Source: Escherichia coli
GTDB taxonomy: Bacteria > Pseudomonadota > Gammaproteobacteria > Enterobacterales > Enterobacteriaceae
Direction: 5' to 3' (one strand)
Length of the DNA: 64,000 bases
Assembly (NCBI RefSeq): GCF_045037415.1
Contig: NZ_CP173438.1
In this document: piece after piece, positions 5,517-28,908 of the stretch
Layout: every line of letters starts with the position of its first letter
How positions within the stretch are numbered: position 1 is the stretch's first letter
Position numbers and translations under genes: made by a program
Notes under the pieces: generated by a model
The model's database searches: none
The model's input: the letters and a program-made list of their open reading frames with translations, nothing else
Told to the model about the DNA's origin: nothing

Positions 5517-5675
5517 ACGCTTCCCTCTGCAAAGTGAGCCTTCAGTCTAAAACTTTTCACTGTATTGTGTTTAACAGTTATAGCTTTTAGCAATTAATGC
5601 AACAGGTTAAACCTACTTTCAGCGAATACATTTTAGCGTGATCATTACAGGCATAAATCTATGAGGAGAGAAATA

Positions 5676-5933
5676 ATGCAAACCGTTATTTTTGGTCGTC
5701 CGGGTTGCCCTTACTGTGTGCGTGCAAAAGATCTGGCTGAGAAATTGAGCAATGAACGCGATGATTTCCAGTATCAGTATGTAGATATTCGTGCGGAAGG
5801 GATCACTAAAGAAGATCTACAACAAAAGGCAGGTAAACCCGTAGAAACCGTGCCGCAGATTTTTGTCGATCAGCAACATATCGGCGGCTATACCGATTTT
5901 GCTGCATGGGTGAAAGAGAATCTGGACGCCTGA
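5676..5933 (+). CDS. grxA: Glutaredoxin 1
   Basis: ORF track 5661..5933; ATG at 5676 gives 85 aa MQTVIFGRPGCPYCVRAK... with CPYC active site. Confidence 0.93.
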   Translation: MQTVIFGRPGCPYCVRAKDLAEKLSNERDDFQYQYVDIRAEGITKEDLQQKAGKPVETVPQIFVDQQHIGGYTDFAAWVKENLDA

Positions 5934-5941
5934 TCGTCTGA

Positions 5942-5976
5942 CAAGCCCTCGCATTGAGGGCTTTATTGATTTTTTC
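5942..5976. terminator. Bidirectional rho-independent terminator between convergent grxA and ybjM
   Basis: Hairpin AAGCCCTCGCATTGAGGGCTT followed by TATTGATTTTTT on plus strand. Confidence 0.6.
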
Positions 5977-6340
5977 TGTGCTGTGGTTTAAACAAACTAC
6001 TGATAAATAAGAAACACAATGCCCCCAGCGCACACCAGAACACCGCACTTAATAACCATGCCAGCTCTTGCCAGAATGAGCGCGTCGGTGAAAAAAACAG
6101 CCGCATAATGAGCATCGAGCAGGGTGCCGCCAGCATTGCGCCAAACAGAGGTTTCAGGACTTCTCTACGATGTGAAAAGAAGCTGGCAACTGCACCAGGA
6201 AGAATGAAAAATAGCAAACCGATTTCAGGATGCCCGGCAGCCCGAAAAGCGCCTTTCATGTGCGTCGCCAGAAAAAGACACACCACAATGAAGAGGACAA
6301 AACAGCAGATTGCCCCCGCCCAACGTTGTTTATGTTTCAC
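5963..6340 (-). CDS. ybjM: Inner membrane protein YbjM
   Basis: ORF track 125 aa MKHKQRWAGAICCFVLFIVV..., four hydrophobic segments; first codon reads GTG. Confidence 0.9.
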   Translation of the reverse strand: MKHKQRWAGAICCFVLFIVVCLFLATHMKGAFRAAGHPEIGLLFFILPGAVASFFSHRREVLKPLFGAMLAAPCSMLIMRLFFSPTRSFWQELAWLLSAVFWCALGALCFLFISSLFKPQHRKNQ

Positions 6341-6608
6341 TCGTTCCTCCTGACACTGCGTCTATCGAACACATTTTTCGCCAGTGTGGCGTTCAGTAAG
6401 ATAAAGCCGCTTCGCATTCCATGCTAATATAGGCCAACGCAATTCATATAGCCGTTGATACCTAATGTGATTACACTAGTAAAATATATTGTTACTTTAC
6501 TATCGTTTAGGTGCGCTGAATGAATCTGCGCCCTGAATTCTGGTAAAAACATTATCGTAAATTACCATTTCTTTCAACAGCTTACTAGTAAACAAGAAGT
6601 TAGCCTCC

Positions 6609-8294
6609 GTGAATATAAACGTCGCCGAATTGTTAAATGGGAATTACATTCTGTTATTATTTGTGGTCCTCGCGCTTGGGCTATGTCTCGGGAAATTACG
6701 ACTTGGTTCGATCCAACTGGGTAATTCCATTGGCGTTTTAGTCGTATCGCTGTTATTAGGCCAACAACATTTCAGCATTAACACCGACGCGCTTAATCTT
6801 GGCTTTATGCTGTTTATTTTCTGCGTCGGGGTCGAAGCCGGACCGAACTTTTTTTCCATTTTTTTTCGCGATGGGAAAAATTACCTAATGTTAGCACTGG
6901 TGATGGTTGGCAGTGCGCTGGTGATCGCCTTAGGGTTAGGTAAGCTGTTTGGCTGGGATATTGGCCTGACGGCCGGTATGTTAGCTGGCTCTATGACGTC
7001 GACACCGGTTCTGGTCGGTGCTGGCGATACACTGCGTCATTCCGGCATGGAAAGCAGGCAGCTCTCACTGGCACTGGATAATCTGAGCCTCGGGTATGCC
7101 TTAACCTATTTAATCGGTCTGGTGAGTTTGATTGTTGGTGCGCGTTACTTGCCGAAATTGCAGCATCAGGACTTACAGACCAGCGCCCAGCAAATCGCCC
7201 GCGAACGTGGCCTGGACACTGATGCCAACCGTAAGGTTTATTTACCGGTGATCCGCGCCTACCGCGTCGGCCCGGAGCTGGTGGCCTGGACCGACGGCAA
7301 AAATCTGCGTGAACTGGGTATTTATCGACAAACTGGCTGCTACATTGAACGTATTCGACGTAACGGGATTCTGGCAAATCCAGACGGTGATGCGGTGCTA
7401 CAAATGGGCGATGAAATAGCGTTGGTAGGCTATCCCGACGCCCACGCCCGACTCGATCCCAGCTTCCGTAACGGCAAAGAAGTTTTCGATCGTGACCTTC
7501 TCGACATGCGTATCGTCACTGAAGAAGTGGTCGTTAAAAACCATAACGCCGTTGGCAAACGTCTCGCACAACTGAAGTTGACCGATCACGGTTGCTTCCT
7601 TAACCGCGTCATTCGTAGCCAGATTGAGATGCCGATAGATGACAACGTCGTGCTTAACAAAGGTGACGTTTTACAAGTCAGCGGCGATGCCCGTCGCGTA
7701 AAAACCATCGCCGATCGCATCGGCTTTATCTCGATTCATAGCCAGGTCACTGACTTGCTGGCATTCTGCGCCTTCTTTGTTATTGGGCTGATGATCGGGA
7801 TGATCACCTTCCAGTTCAGCACATTCAGTTTCGGCATGGGAAACGCTGCCGGGTTGTTATTCGCCGGAATTATGCTGGGATTTATGCGCGCTAACCACCC
7901 GACCTTCGGTTACATTCCGCAGGGTGCATTAAGCATGGTGAAAGAGTTCGGCTTAATGGTGTTTATGGCAGGCGTTGGTCTGAGCGCCGGTAGCGGTATT
8001 AATAACGGCCTGGGCGCGATTGGCGGTCAGATGTTGATTGCCGGATTGATTGTCAGTCTTGTGCCAGTGGTTATCTGTTTCTTGTTCGGTGCTTATGTAT
8101 TGCGAATGAACCGCGCACTGTTGTTCGGCGCAATGATGGGCGCACGCACCTGCGCGCCGGCAATGGAGATCATCAGTGATACAGCTCGCAGTAACATCCC
8201 GGCGCTGGGCTATGCGGGCACCTATGCAATCGCCAACGTCCTGCTGACGCTGGCAGGGACAATCATCGTCATGGTATGGCCAGGATTAGGATAA
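6609..8294 (+). CDS. ybjL: Putative AAE-family transporter YbjL (two TrkA-C domains)
   Basis: ORF track 561 aa [20 protein letters not shown]...; first codon GTG at 6609; stop TAA 8292-8294 confirmed. Confidence 0.93.
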
Positions 8295-8335
8295 AACTGA
8301 AGTTGCCCTGAAAATGAAATTTTTTTTGCACAACC

Positions 8336-8367
8336 GCAGAACTTTTCCGCAGGGCATCAGTCTTAAT
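8336..8367 (+). promoter_or_regulatory. Sigma-E type promoter of rybB (-35 GAACTT, -10 TCTTAA)
   Basis: GAACTT at about 8339-8344 and TCTTAA at about 8361-8366 with 16 bp spacing, immediately upstream of the RybB 5-prime end. Confidence 0.55.
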
Positions 8368-8371
8368 TAGT

Positions 8372-8450
8372 GCCACTGCTTTTCTTTGATGTCCCCATTT
8401 TGTGGAGCCCATCAACCCCGCCATTTCGGTTCAAGGTTGATGGGTTTTTT
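8372..8450 (+). ncRNA. rybB: RybB small regulatory RNA (Hfq-dependent, sigma-E regulon)
   Basis: GCCACTGCTTTTCTTTGATGTCCCCATTTTGTGGAGCCCATCAACCCCGCCATTTCGGTTCAAGGTTGATGGGTTTTTT matches RybB as I recall it; ends in a GC-rich hairpin plus U-tract; lies in the ybjL-rcdA spacer. Confidence 0.85.
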
Positions 8451-8469
8451 GTTGCCTGAAATTTATCTA

Positions 8470-9006
8470 CTACCCAGCAATCCTCTCAACCATCCTCAAA
8501 ATCTCCTCGCGTGATAGCGGCTTACGGTCGGTGACAAAATGCAGCGTCATTCCCTCAATAAACGCATCAAGCGCGCGGGCGGTTCCGGGTTCAAACCATT
8601 GTTCGAGCGTTTGTTGACTGCGCTGCATCCAGTTTTGCATTACCGTTTTTAAGAGCGGTTTTCGGCTAGCCAGCGCGTAGAGCTGGTACATCAGCTCCAT
8701 ATTATCCGGCGTTGCGACCTGTGAGCTGTAGATCATATCGGTGATAGCCTGGCATGCGCCTGGAGCATCACTAACATCGCTAAAAAATGCCTGATATTGC
8801 CGGGACATGATCTCAGTAAAACGGCTGAACGCCTCCAGCAACAACTCATCAATTCCTGAAAAATAGTAGGTCATCGATCCCAACGGCACCCCGGCAAGGG
8901 TAGCAATTTTGCGGTGTGTAACAGCATGTATTCCGTAAAGTTTCACCGCCTCCAGCGTGGCCTGGATAATTTTTTCTCGTCGTTGCGGATCGTTAGCGCG
9001 ACGCAT
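8470..9006 (-). CDS. rcdA: TetR-family transcriptional regulator RcdA (YbjK)
   Basis: ORF track 8470..9036(-); ATG at 9004-9006 gives 178 aa [21 protein letters not shown]... with TetR HTH. Confidence 0.92.
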
Positions 9007-9089
9007 GTCATTTCCTCTCTCTGCAATTGTGTACAAATGTACACAGTCTTGCTAATGTTGTCTTCCCTCTTCTTATTTTGACGTGGTCT

Positions 9090-10298
9090 ATGACCGTAAA
9101 TTCTTCACGTAATGCATTGAAACGCCGAACCTGGGCGCTGTTTATGTTCTTCTTTTTGCCAGGCCTGTTAATGGCGTCCTGGGCAACCCGTACGCCTGCT
9201 ATCCGCGATATTCTCTCTGTCTCGATCGCTGAAATGGGCGGTGTTCTCTTTGGTCTGTCGATCGGTTCGATGAGCGGTATTCTCTGCTCGGCGTGGTTAG
9301 TGAAACGCTTTGGGACGCGTAATGTCATCCTTGTCACGATGTCCTGCGCATTGATCGGGATGATGGTATTAAGTCTGGCACTCTGGCTGACATCGCCCTT
9401 GCTCTTTGCCGTTGGTCTCGGCGTCTTTGGGGCTAGTTTTGGTTCTGCGGAAGTGGCGATAAACGTTGAAGGTGCCGCCGTTGAGAGAGAAATGAATAAG
9501 ACGGTTTTACCGATGATGCACGGTTTTTATAGCCTGGGCACGCTGGCAGGCGCTGGTGTCGGGATGGCACTGACGGCCTTTGGCGTTCCGGCAACGATGC
9601 ACATTTTATTGGCGGCGCTGGTAGGCATCGCGCCTATTTATATCGCCATTCAGGCAATCCCTGATGGTACGGGCAAAAATGCTGCCGATGGCACCCAGCA
9701 TGGCGAAAAAGGCGTTCCTTTTTATCGCGATATCCAGTTGCTGTTGATTGGTGTTGTAGTGCTGGCGATGGCCTTTGCCGAAGGTTCTGCCAACGACTGG
9801 TTACCCTTATTAATGGTTGATGGTCACGGTTTTAGCCCTACTTCCGGCTCGCTGATTTATGCCGGTTTTACTCTGGGGATGACCGTTGGACGCTTTACCG
9901 GCGGTTGGTTCATTGACCGTTACAGTCGCGTTGCCGTGGTTCGGGCCAGTGCACTAATGGGGGCGTTGGGTATTGGGCTGATTATTTTTGTCGATAGCGC
10001 CTGGGTCGCTGGGGTGTCTGTTGTACTTTGGGGACTGGGTGCCTCGCTGGGCTTCCCGCTGACCATTTCTGCCGCCAGCGATACCGGCCCCGATGCACCA
10101 ACCCGCGTCAGCGTGGTAGCTACGACCGGTTATCTGGCTTTCCTCGTCGGGCCGCCGCTGCTGGGCTATCTCGGCGAACATTATGGATTACGTAGTGCAA
10201 TGATGGTTGTACTGGCGCTGGTTATTCTCGCGGCTATTGTCGCGAAAGCCGTCGCCAAACCCGATACCAAAACGCAGACGGCGATGGAGAATAGTTGA
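9090..10298 (+). CDS. ybjJ: MFS transporter YbjJ
   Basis: ORF track 9027..10298; ATG at 9090 gives 402 aa [22 protein letters not shown]...; 12-TM MFS topology. Confidence 0.9.
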
Positions 10299-18393: not shown

Positions 18394-19719
18394 ATGAGCA
18401 AAGTAACTCCCCAGCCGAAAATCGGCTTTGTTTCCCTTGGCTGCCCGAAAAACCTTGTCGATTCAGAGCGTATTCTCACCGAACTACGCACTGAAGGTTA
18501 TGACGTGGTACCGAGCTATGACGATGCGGACATGGTGATCGTCAACACCTGCGGCTTTATTGACAGCGCGGTACAAGAATCACTGGAAGCCATTGGTGAA
18601 GCGTTGAATGAAAACGGCAAGGTAATTGTGACCGGTTGTCTGGGGGCAAAAGAAGATCAGATCCGCGAAGTCCACCCGAAAGTGCTGGAAATCACCGGGC
18701 CTCATAGCTATGAGCAGGTTCTGGAGCACGTTCATCACTACGTGCCAAAACCGAAACACAACCCGTTCCTGAGCCTGGTGCCAGAACAAGGTGTGAAACT
18801 GACGCCGCGTCATTATGCTTATCTGAAAATTTCTGAAGGCTGTAATCACCGCTGCACCTTCTGCATTATTCCGTCTATGCGCGGCGATCTGGTGAGCCGT
18901 CCGATTGGCGAAGTGTTAAGTGAAGCGAAACGTCTGGTTGATGCGGGCGTTAAAGAAATTCTGGTGATCTCGCAGGATACTTCCGCGTATGGCGTCGATG
19001 TTAAACATCGTACTGGCTTCCACAACGGCGAGCCGGTAAAAACCAGCATGGTCAGCCTGTGCGAACAGTTATCGAAACTGGGGATCTGGACACGTCTGCA
19101 CTACGTTTACCCTTATCCGCATGTGGACGACGTCATCCCACTGATGGCAGAGGGCAAAATCCTGCCGTATCTGGACATTCCGTTGCAGCACGCCAGCCCG
19201 CGCATTCTCAAACTGATGAAGCGTCCGGGTTCTGTAGATCGCCAACTGGCGCGCATCAAACAGTGGCGCGAAATCTGCCCGGAACTGACCCTACGCTCAA
19301 CCTTTATTGTTGGCTTCCCTGGCGAGACGGAAGAAGATTTCCAGATGCTACTCGACTTCCTGAAAGAAGCACGTCTGGATCGCGTTGGCTGCTTTAAATA
19401 CAGCCCGGTTGAAGGTGCAGACGCCAATGCCCTGCCTGACCAGGTTCCGGAAGAAGTGAAAGAAGAACGCTGGAACCGTTTCATGCAGCTGCAGCAGCAG
19501 ATTTCCGCCGAGCGCCTGCAAGAGAAAGTGGGTCGTGAAATTCTGGTGATTATCGACGAAGTGGACGAAGAAGGCGCGATTGGTCGCAGCATGGCAGATG
19601 CACCGGAAATCGACGGCGCGGTTTATCTCAATGGTGAAACCAACGTTAAGCCGGGTGATATCCTGCGAGTGAAAGTCGAGCACGCCGATGAGTACGATTT
19701 GTGGGGTAGCCGGGTTTAA
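18394..19719 (+). CDS. rimO: Ribosomal protein S12 methylthiotransferase RimO (radical SAM MTTase)
   Basis: ORF track 441 aa; N-terminal MTTase cysteines (GCPKN, NTCGF), radical [12 protein letters not shown]-terminal TRAM domain. Confidence 0.96.
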
Positions 19720-19725
19720 TTAATT

Positions 19726-19756
19726 CAGGCCGGGCAAAATCATTTGTCCGGCCTGC
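19726..19756. terminator. Bidirectional terminator between rimO and dgcI
   Basis: CAGGCCGGGCAAAATCATTTGTCCGGCCTG hairpin in a 46 bp convergent spacer. Confidence 0.5.
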
Positions 19757-19765
19757 GAATAATGA

Positions 19766-21094
19766 TTACTGCCAGCTAATCTGCGCCCTGCCGTTTTTCT
19801 TACTCTTATACAGCCGCTCATCCGCCAGCATTTTCAATCGTTCGACGGTAGTACATTCATTTGAATGCGCTACACCGATACTGGTGCTTAAATTAATGCT
19901 TCCCACCTGGAAATGAACGATTTCTTTTAGAATCGATAGCAACTCTTCCAGCGTGCCGCCAGTATAAATCACCGCAAATTCGTCACCTCCGAAGCGGTAG
20001 ACTTTACCTTTATCTACCGGGATCTGTGATTTAAGGATTTTCACCACTTTCATCAACACTTCATCGCCCAGCAAATGACCGAAGGTGTCGTTAATGTTTT
20101 TGAATTTATCGACGTCAAACAGGCACAAATAACCGCCTTTTTCCGGCAGCGCTTTTAAATCTTCGTCAAAGGATTTTCTGCCCATCGCTTTGGTCAGGTC
20201 GTCCAGGAATGCCGAGTTATACATACTGTAGAGTTTTTTGACATCGGCAGCCGAAAAGAAAAGCCCGCCATCCAGTACGCGTTCAAAATGGTTATTAATA
20301 ATGGCTTCTTTCTCCACAATACCACGATTAATCACTCTGCGTACCAGATAGAGGCAACTGGCACCCGATATCACTGCCACCAATGCGGCAAAGAAAATAA
20401 TCAATGTACATACCTGAAAATAAACGTCTTTTTTATAAGCAAATACGTACAATCCGGTCGGCAAATAGGAGAAGTGCTCCATTGCTTCCGAAACGGTGAA
20501 GATGGCGTTTTTAGCGTTATATTCATCACCGGTCACCGATTTACCGTTCTTGAACAGGGAGAACATCAGGTTCTCGCTATCCATCGCCAGCGATTTTGAC
20601 AGTAAAGAAAAACGTTCCAGACCAAGCAAAAATATCAGACTACGATTGTGAGTTACCGGATAGAGGTAATAGACGAAGGTTTTACCATCAAAAGAGATAA
20701 ACCCTGTATTTTTGACATGTCGATACTTAACAACCTGCATAATATCTGCACAATAATTTTTCTCAAACTCCTTTACCTGAATACATTCGTCACTGGAAAT
20801 CAGATAAGGACCGACATCGTACAAATAAGAGGGTGAAACCGAGTCGGCGTAAGCTGTGCGTAAGCCAACCAACAGCTGTTCCTCCGTAGGATTTAGCGTG
20901 TTGATCAGATCAATTGCCACACTCCGCCGATATTCAGCAATATTTGCCACCGCAAAAGCAGTATCAATAACGGACTGTTTCAGGCCATACACCCGTTCCT
21001 TTACCATTTGAGTGTAGATCCCGCAGGCAACTGCTGAAATCATGATAAAAATCAGCAGACTGACTGTAAGTACGAATTTATTGATTCTGGACAT
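19766..21094 (-). CDS. dgcI: Membrane diguanylate cyclase DgcI (YliF), GGDEF domain
   Basis: ORF track 442 aa; N-terminal TM/periplasmic region then RFGGDEF motif. Confidence 0.94.
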
Positions 21095-21101
21095 ACGTAA
21101 A

Positions 21102-23450
21102 CTACTCTTTTACTAATTTTCCACTTTTATCCCAGGCGGAGAATGGCATGGGTTTCTGGTACAGATACCCCTGAGCCTGAACACATCCTAATTTGATTAA
21201 TTCACGCGCAACGTCTTCGCTCTCTACGCCTTCCGCAATCACCGGGATCCGGTTATAGCGTGCCAGATCGAAAATAATGCGCACAATTTTTCCCGCAGTA
21301 CCGAAAATATCGCCGGTAAATTGCGAATCCACCTTTATACTGTCTGGATTAATTTCATAAAAACGTTTCAGGTTTGACAAACCGGTGCCAAAGTCATCAA
21401 TCGATACCCGTACCCCTTGTTTACGCAGTTGTTCAATATTGAGATAGAAATGTTCATTAATTCGCTCGATCACGGTTTCGGTGATCTCAACACAAAGGCT
21501 GTTCGCCTTCAGGCCATTTTCTTTCATGATGGTAGTAAAACGCTCATGAAAGTGTGGTTCGTTTAACTGCCAGGGCGAAACATTAATATGCAGTAAGAAA
21601 TCATCCTTCAGCGACGCACGCTGACTAAAATGTCTGAATTCACCCATCGCGGTTTTAATAATTTGATAGCCCAGCTCATTGATAAACCCGATATCTTCAG
21701 CAATGGTAATGAACTTCAGCGGTGAAATAATCCCCCGCTCCGCAGACACCCAACGGCACAACGCCTCCGCGCCCAAAATGGTGCGGGTGTTAATATCAAC
21801 AATCGGTTGATAGACCAGGAATAGTTCGCCAATTTCCATTGCATGGCGAATATTACGCGCAATCCAGATATTCTCTTCTATTTCGTTGAGTTTCGCATCA
21901 TCACAGAAAATAAACTCTGAGAACATATGGTTGCGGATACTGGAAATCGCCAGTTTCAGCTTTTCTGCGTAACTCCAGGCGTTTTCCCCCTGCAAAGGTT
22001 CACAAATAGCAGACTTATGGATGCGCAGATTGCGGTAGCCAAAACTGCTGTCAAAATCGTTTACCGTCGCTATCTTACGGGTAAACGTCTGTACATTTTC
22101 CCGGCACAGGAGTAAATAGAGATCGGCATTAAATGTCACGATATCGCAGCATTGCGCATATTTCTCGGCAATTCGCTGACACAATTTCCTGACGATTTTA
22201 TTGCGTTCATCAACACCAAACACCGCTTCCACAGCTTCCAGACCACACAGTTTGATGATCCCCACAGCCAGATACTGATTATTGTTGGACTCAATAATCG
22301 CCATATTTTTAATAAAACCGCTTTCCTGATCGTAAGAGATCAGCGAGAGCAATTTATTTGCCCGTTCAATTTCAGCATCTTTCATTTCCGCGATCGAATT
22401 TTTGATGCTGATAATCTCTTTCGCATCGCCTTCACGAATCTTCAGGGCCTCGATTTGATCCGTAGAGTCAGGCAAAAACGCCAGCGTATTGACCAAATCT
22501 GTCATTTCAGAAAATTGACGACGGAAAACTCGAGTGGTCATTAAATAAACCACCAGCAATACGATAATAATGAAAGCAAACGGCAGATAAAAAAGTTTAT
22601 CTGATGCGTTCAATAAATTACCACCAGGATAATAAAAATAGATTTCGAATAATGCGTTGTTTGGCACCGCTGATGTTTTTTCAATATATTCCGTATCGAC
22701 AGAATCAATAATATTATAATTACCTTCGCTATTATAAATAATCAATTTTTCACGAGCGAGTTGATTCTTAGCAATGATCTCATGACCTTGCTTTAAAAAT
22801 AGAACTTCATCATTAGCGCTGATGTGATCAAGATACTCGTTCAGATATCGCCAGTTTAAATCGACATGAATTTTATCTACCGCTAACAAATCATGATCTT
22901 TGCCGTTGATGTGTAGCGTAAAAGAGATACATTTTTTACCCGGACGATCAAAGCAATTGTATGCCGGGTTCCAGCTGTTGTTAGAGTCATCTGAAGCCAT
23001 CGACCACGGTCGTTTCGATGGGTTAAAATCGGCAAAAATAACCCGCCCTGACTCGTCGACAAGCGGTCCATTTACTTGTTCCTGATGATAAACAACGATT
23101 TTATCATTCGCCCTCCGCGAAAAGAGATAATATTTATTATCATCAAGTACCAGTCCCACCGAGTCTAAAAATGGCATCATTTCCATTTTCAGAATCACGG
23201 CACGTTGAATCTCCTCTGTATTTTTTAATAAATACAGTGAGTCCTTTAATGTCAGGGCCGAACGTTCAATATCTTTAAAGAAATAGCCAACGTTTTTCTG
23301 AATAAGTTCAAAGCGGCTATCGGCACGTTTTACCGCGCGTTCCGATACCAGTTGATAGTTAATGATGAAAAAAAGACCAATAAATGACAATGCTGCCAAT
23401 AAAAATAAAATTATCAGCCTTATCTTTATCTTTTCGTATAAACTCAGCAT
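21102..23450 (-). CDS. pdeI: Membrane c-di-GMP phosphodiesterase PdeI (YliE), EAL domain
   Basis: ORF track 782 aa; TM helices flank a periplasmic region; EAL motif (GAEALCRW); 7 bp upstream of dgcI on the same strand. Confidence 0.94.
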
Positions 23451-23626
23451 GTTAATACATTTAAAAAAATAACTGTCTGAACGCTGTGCCGCTGCAAAAT
23501 AGTCCCTTGCTGCGGCTTTTTAACCAAATTACCCGATTCTACAAAATCAGCAGAAAGTTACAACACTTGCTTAGGGCAATAATTTCCTGTGAGGTGATTA
23601 CCCTTTCAAGCAATATTCAAACGTAA

Positions 23627-24538
23627 CTATCCTTTAATTTTCGGATCCAGCGCATCGCGTAAACCATCGCCCAACAAATTGAACGCCAGTACGGTCAGAA
23701 AAATAGCCAGGGCCGGAAATACAGCGACATGCGGCGCGATAACCATATCCGCTCGTGCCTCATTGAGCATTGCACCCCACTCTGGTGTCGGCGGCTGCGC
23801 ACCGAGGCCGAGAAATGACAGGCTGGCGGCAGAGATAATCGAGGTGCCAATGCGCATGGTGAAAAACACCACGATAGAAGAGACGGTCCCAGGCAAGATA
23901 TGACGCAACAAAATGGTCATATCGCTGGCACCAATACTGCGTGCTGACTCGATAAAGGTTTGCTGTTTCAACACCAGCGTGTTGCCGCGCACCAGCCGGG
24001 CAAACGCGGGGATGGAAAAAATGGCGACTGCGATAATCACGTTAGCAATGCCGCTTCCCAACACCGCAACAACAGCGATCGCCAGTAAAATACCCGGGAA
24101 GGCAAACAGCACATCGCAAATGCGCATGATCAGCCGATCCCACCAGCCTTCATAATATCCAGCCAGCAAGCCCAGCAACGTCCCGATCGCCGCACCGATA
24201 AACACGGCAAACACGCCCGCCGCCAGCGAGATTTGCGCACCAACCAGGACACGGCTGAAAATGTCGCGCCCCAGTGAATCGACACCAAACCAGTGCTGCA
24301 AAGAAGGTCCGTTATTCAGATTGTCATAATCAAAATAATTTTCGGCGTCATAGGGAGCGATCCAGCGTGCAAAAATGGCCACCACAATCAATAAAATAAC
24401 GAACAATGCGGCGGTCATCGCCATATGCTGACGGCGAAATCGTCGCCAGAATTCATGCCACGGTGTACGTACCTGGTCAGGTTTGACCAGTGGCATGGCG
24501 TTTAACACCGCCTGACGTCGCCAGTTAAATAGTCGCAT
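23627..24538 (-). CDS. gsiD: Glutathione ABC transporter permease GsiD
   Basis: ORF track 303 aa; Opp/Dpp-type permease. Confidence 0.94.
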
Positions 24539-25478: not shown

Positions 25479-27017
25479 TTATTGCAAATCCGCGTCTTCA
25501 AAGCTGAAGCCGGTGTCTGGCATGATCCAAAAACCGGTCAGGTTTTTACTGTGTGCCGACACCAGTTTTTCTACCACCAGCGGGATCCACGGCGACTCTT
25601 GCCAGATGATATCCTGCGCCGCCTTATACAAGCGGGTCTTTTCCGCCGGATCATTAGTTTTCAGTGCCTGAGCCAGGAAGTCATCCACCTGTTTATTGCT
25701 GTAAAACGCGGTATTAAACAGCGTTGGTGGCCAGTTCTGCGAGGCAAACAGCGGCGATAGAGCCCAGTCGGCTTCGCCGGTTGAAGCCGACCAGCCAGTG
25801 TAGAACATCCGCACGCAGCTCTCTTTTTGCCCTTTACCTTCAACTTCTGCCGCCCGCTGTCCGGCATCCATCGCAGTCACCTGGGCTTTAATCCCAACCT
25901 GCGCTAACTGCTGCTGGGTAAATTGCAGCACTTTCTGCGCGGTGCTGTGGTTATGTGACGACCACAGCGTGGTACTGAAACCGTTGGGATATCCCGCCTC
26001 TTTCAGTAATTCGCGCGCTTTCACTGGATCGTAAGGCCACGGTTTATAACTTTGCGCGTAGGCGATACTCGGCGGTACCACACCAGTAGCTGGCGTTGCA
26101 TAGCCCGCGAAGGCCACTTTCACCAGCGCCGGGCGGTTAATGGCGTAATTCAGCGCCTCACGGACCTTCGGGTTATCGAACGGCTTTTGCGTCACGTTCA
26201 TACTGATATAACGCTGCATAATTGACGGACTGGCCATCAACTCGATATTTTTGTTTTTCTCCAGCAGTGCGGCCTGCTCGTAGGGAATGGGGAAAGCAAA
26301 CTGCGCTTCACCGGTTTGCAGCATTGCCGCGCGGGTGTTGTTATCCGCCACCGGACGCCAGGTTATGCTGTCCAGTTTGGGCAATCCTGGCTGCCAGTAA
26401 CCCGCGAATTTTTTCACCTTCACAAAATCGGTCTGATTCCAGGTATCCAGTTCATACGGCCCGGTTCCCACCGGATGAAAACCAATCTCCTTGCCATATT
26501 TTTCCAGCGCTGCCGGTGATATCATCGCGGTCGCCGGATGGGCAAGAATATTAATAAACGCTGAGAATGGCTGTTTGAGGGTAATCTTTACCGTTGTCGG
26601 ATCGATCGCTTCCGTTTTGGCGATATTCTTATACAGGTTATAGCGTTTAAGATGATTCGCCGGATCGCTGGCCCGGTCCAGATTCGCTTTCACCGCCGCT
26701 GCGTTGAAATCGGTGCCATCCTGGAATTTAATGCCTTCCCGCAATTTCACGGTGTAAGTAAGGCCGTCATCGGAAACGGTGTAACTCTCCGCCAGCACGT
26801 TTTTCAGTTTCATCTCTTTATCCAGACCGAACAGCCCCTGGTAAAACGATTTCGCTACGGCCTGAGATAACGTGTCATTTGCGTCATACGGATCGAGCGT
26901 GGTGAAGTTCGATCCCACCGCCACCACCACCTCTTTGGCAGCGAATGCACAAGATGCCATCAACGCTGTCGCAATGCCCAGCGCCACTAACCCACTACGG
27001 TGTACAGCTCTTGCCAT
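25479..27017 (-). CDS. gsiB: Glutathione-binding periplasmic protein GsiB
   Basis: ORF track 25479..27284(-); internal ATG gives 512 aa [26 protein letters not shown]... with signal peptide; family 5 solute-binding protein. Confidence 0.92.
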
Positions 27018-27036
27018 TTTATTCTCCGCCTGAATG

Positions 27037-28908
27037 TTATCTACGCATGAATGCGTATTCTGATTGTGGTTGTGCGACGTAATGCCCCGGCCCGACGCAT
27101 TGCAACGAGACGGCTGCAACCTCTTCGCCACGCAGATGAATATTGCTGGGAAGATCGTCCGACAGCAGTACACGCTGCGGTCGTTGTCGGGACGGTTCAG
27201 CGACCGGAACTGCCGCCAGTAATTTACGCGTATAAGGATGCTGCGGATTTTCAAAGACCGCGCGCCGTGGACCAATTTCAACAATTTGCCCGAGATACAT
27301 CACCGCCACACGATGACTAATCCGCTCAACCACGGCCATATCGTGGGAGATAAACAGATACGCAATGCCGAAATCACGCTGGAGATCGAGCAACAAGTTG
27401 ATAATCTGCCCGCGAATAGAAACATCCAGCGCCGAGACGGCTTCGTCGGCAATGATCACTTTTGGATTCAATGCCAACGCGCGAGCAATGCAGATGCGCT
27501 GGCGCTGACCGCCGGAAAACTCATGTGGGTAACGCCAGGCATGTTCCGGTAACAGGCCCACGCGCTCCAGCAACCACGCAACGCGTGCAGCCGCTTCTTT
27601 ACCTGGCAATAAACCGTGTACGCGCAGCGGTTCGAGAATCGAATCACCGATAGTCTGACGTGGGTCCAGCGAAGCGTAAGGGTCCTGAAAAATAAACTGA
27701 ATATCGCGGCGCAATGCCTGAAGTTTACCGGGTGACAAGGTATCGATTCGCTGACCGTTAAAGATAATTTCGCCGCCCTGCGATTCGACCAGGCGCAACA
27801 ACGCCCGCCCGGTAGTGGATTTACCGCTGCCAGACTCGCCCACCAGCGATAGCGTTTCGCCAGGCCAGAGATCAAAACTGACTTTCTCAACGGCATGCAC
27901 TTCCCGCGTTACGCGATTCAACAAACCGCTGCGCAAAGGGAAACGGGTGACCAGATTACGCACCCGTAAAACAGGTTCGCCATCCACCACCGTTTTCTGC
28001 TCGATGGATGACTCCTGTTTCGCTGGATGTTCAAGCGATATCAATGGGAAACGTCGGGGATAATCTAACCCTTTCATCGCACCAAGTTGCGGAACAGCAG
28101 CTAACAGCGCACGGGTATAAGGATGTTGCGGTGCATGAAAAATCTGTTCGACGCTACCCGTTTCCACCGCCTCGCCCTGATACATCACCAGTACCCGATC
28201 GGCAATCTCTGCCACCACACCCATATCGTGAGTGATAAAGATAACGCCCATCGACATCTCTTTTTGCAATACTTTGATTAATTGCAGGATCTGCGCCTGA
28301 ATAGTGACATCCAGCGCGGTGGTTGGCTCATCGGCAATCAGCACCGCCGGGCGGCATGACAGCGCCATCGCAATCATCACTCGCTGGCGCATCCCGCCAG
28401 AGAGTTGATGCGGATAACGTGAAAGAATGGTTTGTGCCTCCGGAATGCGTACCTGATCCAGCATCCGCTTCGCCTCGACCATCGCTTCTTCACGACTGGC
28501 GTTCTGATGCAGACGAATAGATTCAGCAATCTGTTCACCCACAGTAAATACCGGGTTCAGCGATGTCATCGGCTCCTGAAATATCATCGCCATATCCGCA
28601 CCGCGCACATGGCGCATTTGTGCAGCGCTCTGCTCGCTAAGTTCAATTACTTCGCGACTGCGCCGCTGCAACAGCATTTTATCGCACTGCACTAAACCGC
28701 CCGCCTGTTCCAACAGGCGCATCAATGCCAGCGCAGTCACTGACTTACCGGAGCCGGATTCGCCAACAATTGCCAGCGTCTCACCACGTTGCAGGCTAAA
28801 AGAGAGATTGCGGACCGCAGCTATTTTCTGCTGCTCCTGCATAAAGGCAATATTCAGATTTTCAACCGCCAGCACATCACCGGCATCAAGTTCATCACTG
28901 TGTGGCAA
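27037..28908 (-). CDS. gsiA: Glutathione ABC transporter ATP-binding protein GsiA (tandem ABC domains)
   Basis: ORF track 27037..29016(-); two Walker A motifs (GESGSGKS twice) and two LSGG signatures; no in-frame ATG before PHSDELD, so start inferred at TTG 28906-28908 (623 aa); start uncertain. Confidence 0.88.

Follow-up and report, generated by a model that had tools for sequence, protein, structure and literature searches.

The pdeI-dgcI locus of Escherichia coli, a probable two-gene c-di-GMP cassette with separate predicted periplasmic sensors

Why do two membrane enzymes of opposing activity lie side by side in nearly every Escherichia coli genome, and what might they do together? The question is raised by a 64,000-nucleotide stretch of E. 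coli DNA (contig NZ_CP173438.1, assembly GCF_045037415.1; hereafter the window). It carries pdeI (yliE), the gene of a putative cyclic di-GMP (c-di-GMP) phosphodiesterase, and, 7 nucleotides downstream, dgcI (yliF), the gene of a putative diguanylate cyclase. The locus is already known: it is a catalogued pair of the E. coli core genome, and both genes are named members of the GGDEF/EAL set, among which they count with the least understood.

Taken jointly, our results are best explained by an AT-rich two-gene cassette of the core genome, inserted between gsiD and rimO, whose two opposing and separately gated enzymes would exert push-pull control over c-di-GMP. We hold this explanation with good confidence. 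What the present analysis adds to the catalogue is a set of sensor fold predictions, conserved residues to guide a ligand search, independent evidence that the cassette is conserved (down to about 33-41% identity) and a sequence argument bearing on the published dispute over PdeI.

Identity and catalytic domains of the pair

The minus-strand open reading frame (ORF) at 21102-23450 encodes 782 amino acids (aa), of which 774 are identical to PdeI/YliE (b0833) of strain K-12 (99%). The minus-strand ORF at 19766-21094 encodes 442 aa, of which 436 are identical to K-12 DgcI/YliF (b0834; 99%). Together with the RefSeq annotation of identical DNA, which reads gsiD, pdeI, dgcI, rimO, these identities bear out the names pdeI and dgcI that an earlier note, made from the sequence of this DNA, had given to the two genes. 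Of 5426 complete E. coli genomes, 5425 match the region 19600-23700, and in 5380 of them at least 80% of it lies in one piece. Several strains, one of them labelled O25b:H4-ST131, are 100% identical to our DNA across the region. The GC content is 41% in pdeI and 43% in dgcI and drops to 25-38% where TM1 and the periplasmic domain are encoded, compared with 51-54% in gsiBCD, rimO and yliI. Such a composition would fit an old horizontal insertion of the pair at this site and, with the induction of both genes at 37 °C reported for CFT073, hints at silencing of the H-NS type.

Compared with the K-12 pair, the gsiD-pdeI-dgcI-rimO synteny and the 7-nt spacer are alike. Eight substitutions distinguish the two PdeI proteins (V151M, Q209H, E318D, S363A, M462T, D507N, A557T and I682V) and six the two DgcI proteins (S37G, P186S, A209S, L226F, R227Q and P415T), none of which touches a catalytic motif.

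PdeI consists of a first transmembrane segment (TM1), a periplasmic CHASE9/dCache region, a second transmembrane segment (TM2), a linker, a degenerate GGDEF-like domain and an EAL domain. The EAL domain (aa 532-767; 21150-21857, minus strand) is recognised by Pfam family PF00563 at 233.7 bits against a cut-off of 31.3 (E 2.6e-69), and it matches EAL domains in the Protein Data Bank (PDB) with E values down to 2.9e-44. Its catalytic set is complete, comprising EALCR562, N623, EITE655, DDFGTG685, KVD706, EGVE740 and QGY760, and is kept in four lineages of the family. By these motif criteria PdeI is a member of the catalytically competent class of EAL phosphodiesterases.

DgcI has the order TM1, periplasmic GAPES2 domain, TM2, linker and GGDEF domain. 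The latter (aa 295-437; 19784-20212, minus strand) matches PF00990 at 89.4 bits against a cut-off of 23.8 (E 2.9e-25). DVDKFK327, the motif ending at 335 and GGDEF369 are intact, as are residues D327/D329, N335 and D344, and the active-site, metal-binding and substrate-binding residues are invariant in six family members. With this domain and these active-site residues, DgcI is a GGDEF diguanylate cyclase as judged from its sequence. Upstream of the GGDEF motif, inspection of the sequence found VDKGKVYRF and no RxxD inhibitory site; the inhibitory site is entered as 'GE' in the table of PMC3484386.

The motif table given there for strain CFT073 (Spurbeck et al. 2012, PMC3484386) agrees that the EAL and GGDEF catalytic motifs are intact. 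The earlier note had proposed opposing catalytic activities, open to challenge if the motifs proved degenerate on closer inspection. On inspection all residues of the PdeI EAL and DgcI GGDEF domains were present, and the proposal of intact, opposing domains stands.

Two different periplasmic sensors

By hydropathy, each protein has two TM segments, between which lies a periplasmic region; it measures about 255 aa in PdeI, against about 200 aa in DgcI. The lengths between the segments are occupied by CHASE9 in PdeI and by GAPES2 in DgcI, in agreement with the N-terminal transmembrane and periplasmic topology claimed for both proteins. The PdeI sensor region extends over aa 32-286 (22593-23357, minus strand). 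CHASE9 covers its aa 35-150 (nt 23001-23348; PF17153, 210.6 bits against a cut-off of 27, E 5.9e-63) and is matched by all four lineages. The GAPES2 domain of DgcI (aa 29-228; 20411-21010, minus strand) is matched by PF17156 over aa 26-229 at 464 bits, again against a cut-off of 27 (E 6.8e-140). Of the CSS or CHASE-like sensors that had been suggested, the CHASE-like part therefore stands for PdeI, with GAPES2 in DgcI, while no CSS-motif domain was found among the Pfam matches of either protein at E values up to 0.1.

Both periplasmic domains were modelled with AlphaFold2 from small family alignments. The DgcI model (mean predicted local distance difference test score 80.5, predicted template modelling score 0.70) matches sensors of the tandem-PAS/double-Cache type, namely KinD (13.2), Tlp1 (12.3) and AHK4 (11.5). 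A long N-terminal helix and two tandem PAS-like alpha/beta modules, the features by which a dCache domain is recognised, were found. Direct matches to Pfam dCache_1 were obtained for two of the four PdeI-family sensors (E 1.8e-7); the chromosomal PdeI and DgcI fall below the threshold of that family. PDB profile and single-sequence searches with the two periplasmic regions found no matching solved structure. We predict from the models that the whole PdeI sensor region has a double-Cache fold and that the DgcI sensor has a tandem-PAS/double-Cache-like fold.

Between the two sensor domains no sequence relationship could be detected (hhalign E 0.6). This lack of similarity suggests that PdeI and DgcI probably read different signals. 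As the earlier note had said, the input signal is not evident from the sequence.

Some conserved residues may nevertheless serve as leads in a search for ligands. Each sensor has a cysteine pair that is invariant in all lineages examined: C166/C174 in PdeI (about 22929-22955; pattern YNCFxxxxxKC) and C104/C115 in DgcI (about 20750-20785; pattern C-x10-C). Their invariance suggests disulfides, either structural or redox-sensitive. DgcI also carries an invariant motif, N51-x2-E54-x-R56-R57. In PdeI, the arrangement [F/Y]142-x4-R147-x-W149...Y164...D197 (about 22860-23027) resembles, in its spacing, the amino-acid motif of dCache_1AA domains. R147, W149, Y164 and D197 are conserved, and position 142 is Phe in the chromosomal protein and Tyr in the plasmid paralogues described below. 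In PctA, the corresponding amino-acid-binding AA_motif consists of Y121, R126, W128, Y144 and D173 (PMC8915833). We offer the PdeI motif and the cysteine pairs as leads only.

The two sensors share only about 10% sequence identity with the dCache_1 domains of McpU, PctA, PctD, CqsR, KinD and DctB. Unlike these chemoreceptors and kinases, they carry an extra conserved cysteine pair, and they feed into c-di-GMP turnover instead of chemotaxis or phosphorylation. PdeI also resembles the CSS phosphodiesterases PdeB, PdeC, PdeD, PdeG and PdeN, being a membrane EAL protein with two TM segments and conserved periplasmic cysteines, but it differs from them in its dCache-like periplasmic fold and in its additional degenerate GGDEF-like domain.

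A divergent GGDEF-like domain in PdeI

This additional domain was overlooked in the earlier note. The published mutation G412S falls within it, and it underlies a dispute in the literature on the effect of PdeI on c-di-GMP in vivo. Some 140 aa of PdeI, lying after TM2 and before the EAL domain, have been called a divergent GGDEF domain (PMC11651652; preprint 10.1101/2025.05.09.653004). We place this domain at aa 378-520 (21891-22319, minus strand), in a register set by hhalign and manual alignment. In NCBIfam, alignments with GepA and DosP, two GGDEF-EAL proteins, extend across this middle region, and it is likely to be a GGDEF-like domain.

Aligned to DgcI, the region has NADLY at the GGDEF position, and its first metal-binding Asp is replaced by Ile. 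The four PdeI lineages read NADLY, LSSDLY, INKNKY and LSPYKY at this position, and none has a GGDEF motif. With both the motif and the metal-binding Asp lost, canonical c-di-GMP synthesis by PdeI itself appears very unlikely. G412 is invariant in all four lineages. The degenerate domain of PdeI is treated as regulatory in the literature.

Composite GGDEF-EAL phosphodiesterases in which a degenerate GGDEF domain is regulatory include CC3396/PdeA of Caulobacter and PdeR of E. coli. As in these enzymes, the GGDEF-like domain of PdeI lies directly upstream of an intact EAL domain, and a point mutation in it (G412S) alters the output. In contrast to them, the domain in PdeI is too divergent for detection by Pfam.

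Related cassettes on the chromosome and on plasmids

If the two genes form a functional unit, they might be expected to stay together in divergent relatives, and this is what we found. An Escherichia orthologue pair with 69% (PdeI) and 78% (DgcI) identity has the same synteny and a 9-nt gap. A pair on IncHI1B/IncF plasmids (36% and 41% identity) overlaps by 11 nt and adjoins insertion sequence (IS) elements and bcsA-bcsB; a pair on a Salmonella Saintpaul IncFII plasmid (33% and 39%) has a 9-nt gap and is without bcs genes; and on plasmid S56 remnants of the pair lie beside bcsA. For all 37 plasmids found in both match lists, the PdeI-like gene is upstream of the DgcI-like gene on the same strand, at a distance fitting immediate adjacency. 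Catalytic residues are kept in every PdeI and DgcI lineage examined.

These paralogous cassettes of E. coli and Salmonella plasmids, for which we have the coordinates 6385-10054 (L003), 5631-9305 (L008), 6357-8298 (L010) and 6980-8206 (L009), are usually flanked by IS1 or IS26 and placed beside bcsA-bcsB. IS1 truncates some copies, which have lost the PdeI-like gene along with the 5' end of its DgcI-like neighbour. YliE/YliF-like plasmid pairs beside accessory cellulose synthase clusters, bcsA2-4, were described in a preprint from the Roemling lab (10.1101/2025.05.09.653004), and our observations independently confirm this association.

The chromosomal pair shares with the bcsA2-4 pairs its domain architecture, gene order, tight coupling and intact catalytic residues, as well as the degenerate GGDEF domain in the EAL protein and the conserved periplasmic cysteine pairs. 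The plasmid pairs differ in being 33-41% identical to it, in their IncHI1B/IncF location and in their IS1/IS26 and bcsA-bcsB flanks, whereas chromosomal pdeI-dgcI is without an adjacent c-di-GMP effector. The placement of the plasmid copies beside c-di-GMP-activated cellulose synthases makes local c-di-GMP signalling by these paralogues a reasonable hypothesis.

Transcription of the pair

The junction of the two genes reads AAA GAG TAG, TTTACGT, ATG TCC. The spacer between the pdeI stop and the dgcI start, TTTACGT at 21095-21101 (minus strand), is identical in K-12, and the spacing of 7 bp reported earlier is exact. The dgcI start has no strong Shine-Dalgarno sequence, only a weak AAGAG 11 nt upstream. 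Corresponding junctions in the paralogues measure +9, -11 (an overlap), +9 and +2 nt. A consensus scan found no sigma-70-like promoter on the minus strand of 21100-21700, the last 600 or so nucleotides of pdeI. Terminator-like sites at the junction are below chance expectation and none is convincing.

Upstream, 176 bp separate gsiD from pdeI, and this intergenic region holds a candidate sigma-70 promoter for pdeI, TTGTAA-16 nt-TAGAAT at 23536-23563 (minus strand; 9 of 12 consensus matches). The promoter block CTGATTTTGTAGAATC is kept in the 69%-identical Escherichia orthologue, while the intergenic sequence around it diverges. Position -16 from the pdeI start is T here and G in K-12. No Shine-Dalgarno-like sequence precedes the pdeI ATG (23451-23475, minus strand), where the leader is AT-rich; a two-codon mini-ORF, ATG TAT TAA, stops 1 nt before the pdeI start. 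Downstream, rimO is convergent with dgcI. Between the two stops, at 19726-19755, lies an inverted repeat forming a GC-rich hairpin with 13-nt arms and a 4-nt loop (RNA fold -20.3 kcal/mol, z -2.9), which is likely a terminator shared by dgcI and rimO.

Published expression data place both genes together. Both are up at 37 °C in CFT073 (PMC12890032), and both are up with BolA (PMC5605933). The genes are thus on the same strand, separated by a short gap without intervening terminator or promoter, adjacent in divergent relatives in a conserved order, and alike in their response to temperature and BolA, all of which makes their co-transcription probable. The earlier note had called co-transcription almost certain. 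The 7-nt gap, the lack of a junction terminator or promoter and the conserved order support the co-transcription itself, but not that degree of certainty, and a peak of RpoN binding has been reported inside pdeI; the claim is better put as likely.

A proposed mechanism and its alternatives

In the mechanism that we favour, the pair would be transcribed from a promoter upstream of pdeI, with expression mainly at 37 °C, and the junction of 7 nt, which offers no good ribosome-binding site, would keep the translation of dgcI low. Each enzyme would be gated by its own periplasmic ligand. In PdeI, the EAL domain may be kept inactive by the linker and the degenerate GGDEF domain as long as no signal comes from the periplasm. 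The activating effect of G412S would follow from such an arrangement, which also fits the report that pdeI suppressor mutations restore the motility of a pdeH mutant (PMC12890032). Overexpressed PdeI would act as a net phosphodiesterase and in this way block infection by phage N4, and PdeI and DgcI together would form a push-pull controller of c-di-GMP. In the plasmid paralogues, the cassette would have been set beside c-di-GMP-dependent cellulose synthase operons.

In part, published phenotypes accord with the predicted activities. Overexpression of pdeI, like that of five other phosphodiesterases, blocks the c-di-GMP-dependent infection by phage N4 (PMC7553319; PMC8669469), and the phenotype of a yliF deletion in CFT073 is complemented by the cyclase WspR (PMC3484386).

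A number of points weigh against the mechanism we favour. The DgcI protein was undetectable under standard conditions and is toxic on overexpression (PMC5635695); a push-pull pair in balance may thus be absent in the laboratory, and at temperatures other than 37 °C or away from the host the module may be mostly silent. Overexpression of PdeI raised c-di-GMP about 11-fold as measured by liquid chromatography-mass spectrometry (LC-MS), and G412S abolished this rise (PMC11651652, a 2024 eLife study). The GGDEF-like assignment of PdeI 378-520 has no Pfam match behind it, even at E 10; its alignment to the DgcI GGDEF domain, in the expected register, is non-significant (hhalign E 0.11), and so is the match to the degenerate GGDEF structure 3mtk in a PDB profile search (E 0.28). 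Genomic SELEX (gSELEX) with the RpoN holoenzyme placed a peak inside pdeI, at K-12 position 874,568, and assigned it to yliF (PMC8743547). Our literature search on yliEF and pdeI-dgcI found no direct operon evidence, and no ligand, PdeI-DgcI interaction or local target is described for the chromosomal pair.

The LC-MS result conflicts with the N4 screen, in which PdeI behaves as a phosphodiesterase, and invites the reading that PdeI in practice raises c-di-GMP. It might do so through synthesis by its own divergent GGDEF domain or, more plausibly, by activating a cyclase, with DgcI as a candidate, as long as its signal is off. The positive correlation of the c-di-GMP sensor signal with the PdeI level in the same study (PMC11651652) and the conservation of the degenerate domain and of G412 in all four lineages speak for it, and a partnership of PdeI with DgcI would be in keeping with how strictly the cassette is conserved. 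Against it stand the degenerate GGDEF position of the four lineages with its replaced metal-binding Asp, the intact and conserved EAL catalytic residues, the N4 resistance that pdeI overexpression confers as other phosphodiesterases do (PMC7553319) and the pdeI suppressors of the pdeH motility defect. On balance we judge this reading unlikely. The RpoN peak, in turn, suggests that the adjacent genes might be transcribed independently, with a dgcI promoter, e.g., of the sigma-54 type, inside the 3' part of pdeI. By our own coordinate conversion the peak falls at about 21861 of the window, some 770 nt upstream of the dgcI start. We found no good match to TGGCAC-N5-TTGCW near this position, and over the whole window the pattern turned up no more often than expected by chance; a sigma-54 promoter inside pdeI was therefore rejected as a candidate. 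The nearest minus-strand sequence, TGGCACCGGTTTGTCA at 21375-21390, has two mismatches in its -12 element. The sigma-70 scan of the 3' part of pdeI was likewise negative, coupling is favoured by the narrow gap of 7 nt and by paralogue junctions that overlap or nearly touch, and both genes rise at 37 °C as well as with BolA, so that we give independent transcription a small chance.

Another view sees in the pair a remnant of horizontal transfer that is largely silent and matters little in most conditions, its two genes being adjacent only through common acquisition. The low GC content of the pair relative to its flanks would fit this view. A remnant would also fit the undetectable DgcI with its very low reporter activity (PMC5635695), the unchanged motility of CFT073 after either deletion (PMC3484386) and the narrow distribution of the GAPES2 sensor. 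When 1.84 billion representative proteins were searched in full with HMMER, this sensor had 35 matches, most of them short pieces that share more than 80% identity with the query, and only two distinct full-length relatives emerged; it is almost entirely confined to Escherichia, and word-indexed searches agree for both sensors. The most distant GAPES2-GGDEF relatives (P0059 and P0067) lie on contigs so short that no neighbouring genes are seen. Furthermore, IS1 insertions split pdeI or dgcI in some otherwise 100% identical strains (e.g., THO-015, Ecol_AZ146 and an ST131 pig isolate), which indicates that the pair is dispensable in some lineages. We also considered, from the sizes of protein clusters, whether dgcI or pdeI is frequently truncated; this was rejected, as the truncated representatives came from a contig end or an error-rich assembly. 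Yet the locus is kept in all but one of the complete genomes, mostly in one piece, and its reading frames and catalytic residues are intact both here and in the 69-78%-identical orthologue. Both genes are induced at 37 °C (PMC12890032), deletion of yliF alters adherence (PMC3484386), an insertion in yliE affects the expression of type 1 fimbriae, and persisters are enriched among PdeI-high cells (PMC11651652). A silent remnant thus appears improbable to us.

Beyond the push-pull cassette that we favour, one can imagine a mobile and obligate two-sensor switch. Two double-Cache sensors would read two ligands, with a PdeI pocket of the amino-acid or amine type (R-x-W...Y...D), and the GGDEF domains of the two proteins, degenerate in PdeI, would pair physically; PdeI would boost DgcI when its signal is off and degrade the product when it is on. 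If true, this would reconcile the reported c-di-GMP rise through PdeI with the reports that PdeI acts as a phosphodiesterase, and would also account for the joint travel of the cassette and accessory cellulose synthase operons, which it would serve as a dedicated local controller. At present we regard this switch as a long shot.

Other features of the window

An Rfam scan found no RNA family in or near the pdeI-dgcI locus. The sole family at threshold in the 64-kb window is the small RNA RybB, matched at full length at 8375-8453 on the plus strand (105.3 bits against a gathering score of 40).

Beyond gsiD, the mechanical ORF list gives gsiB as a 601-aa minus-strand ORF at 25479-27284 with a TTG start, whereas K-12 gsiB has 1,539 nt (about 512 aa). 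Counted from the same stop, the K-12 length puts the start at the Met of MARAVHRSG..., which shows the extra 5' part to be an ORF-calling artefact.

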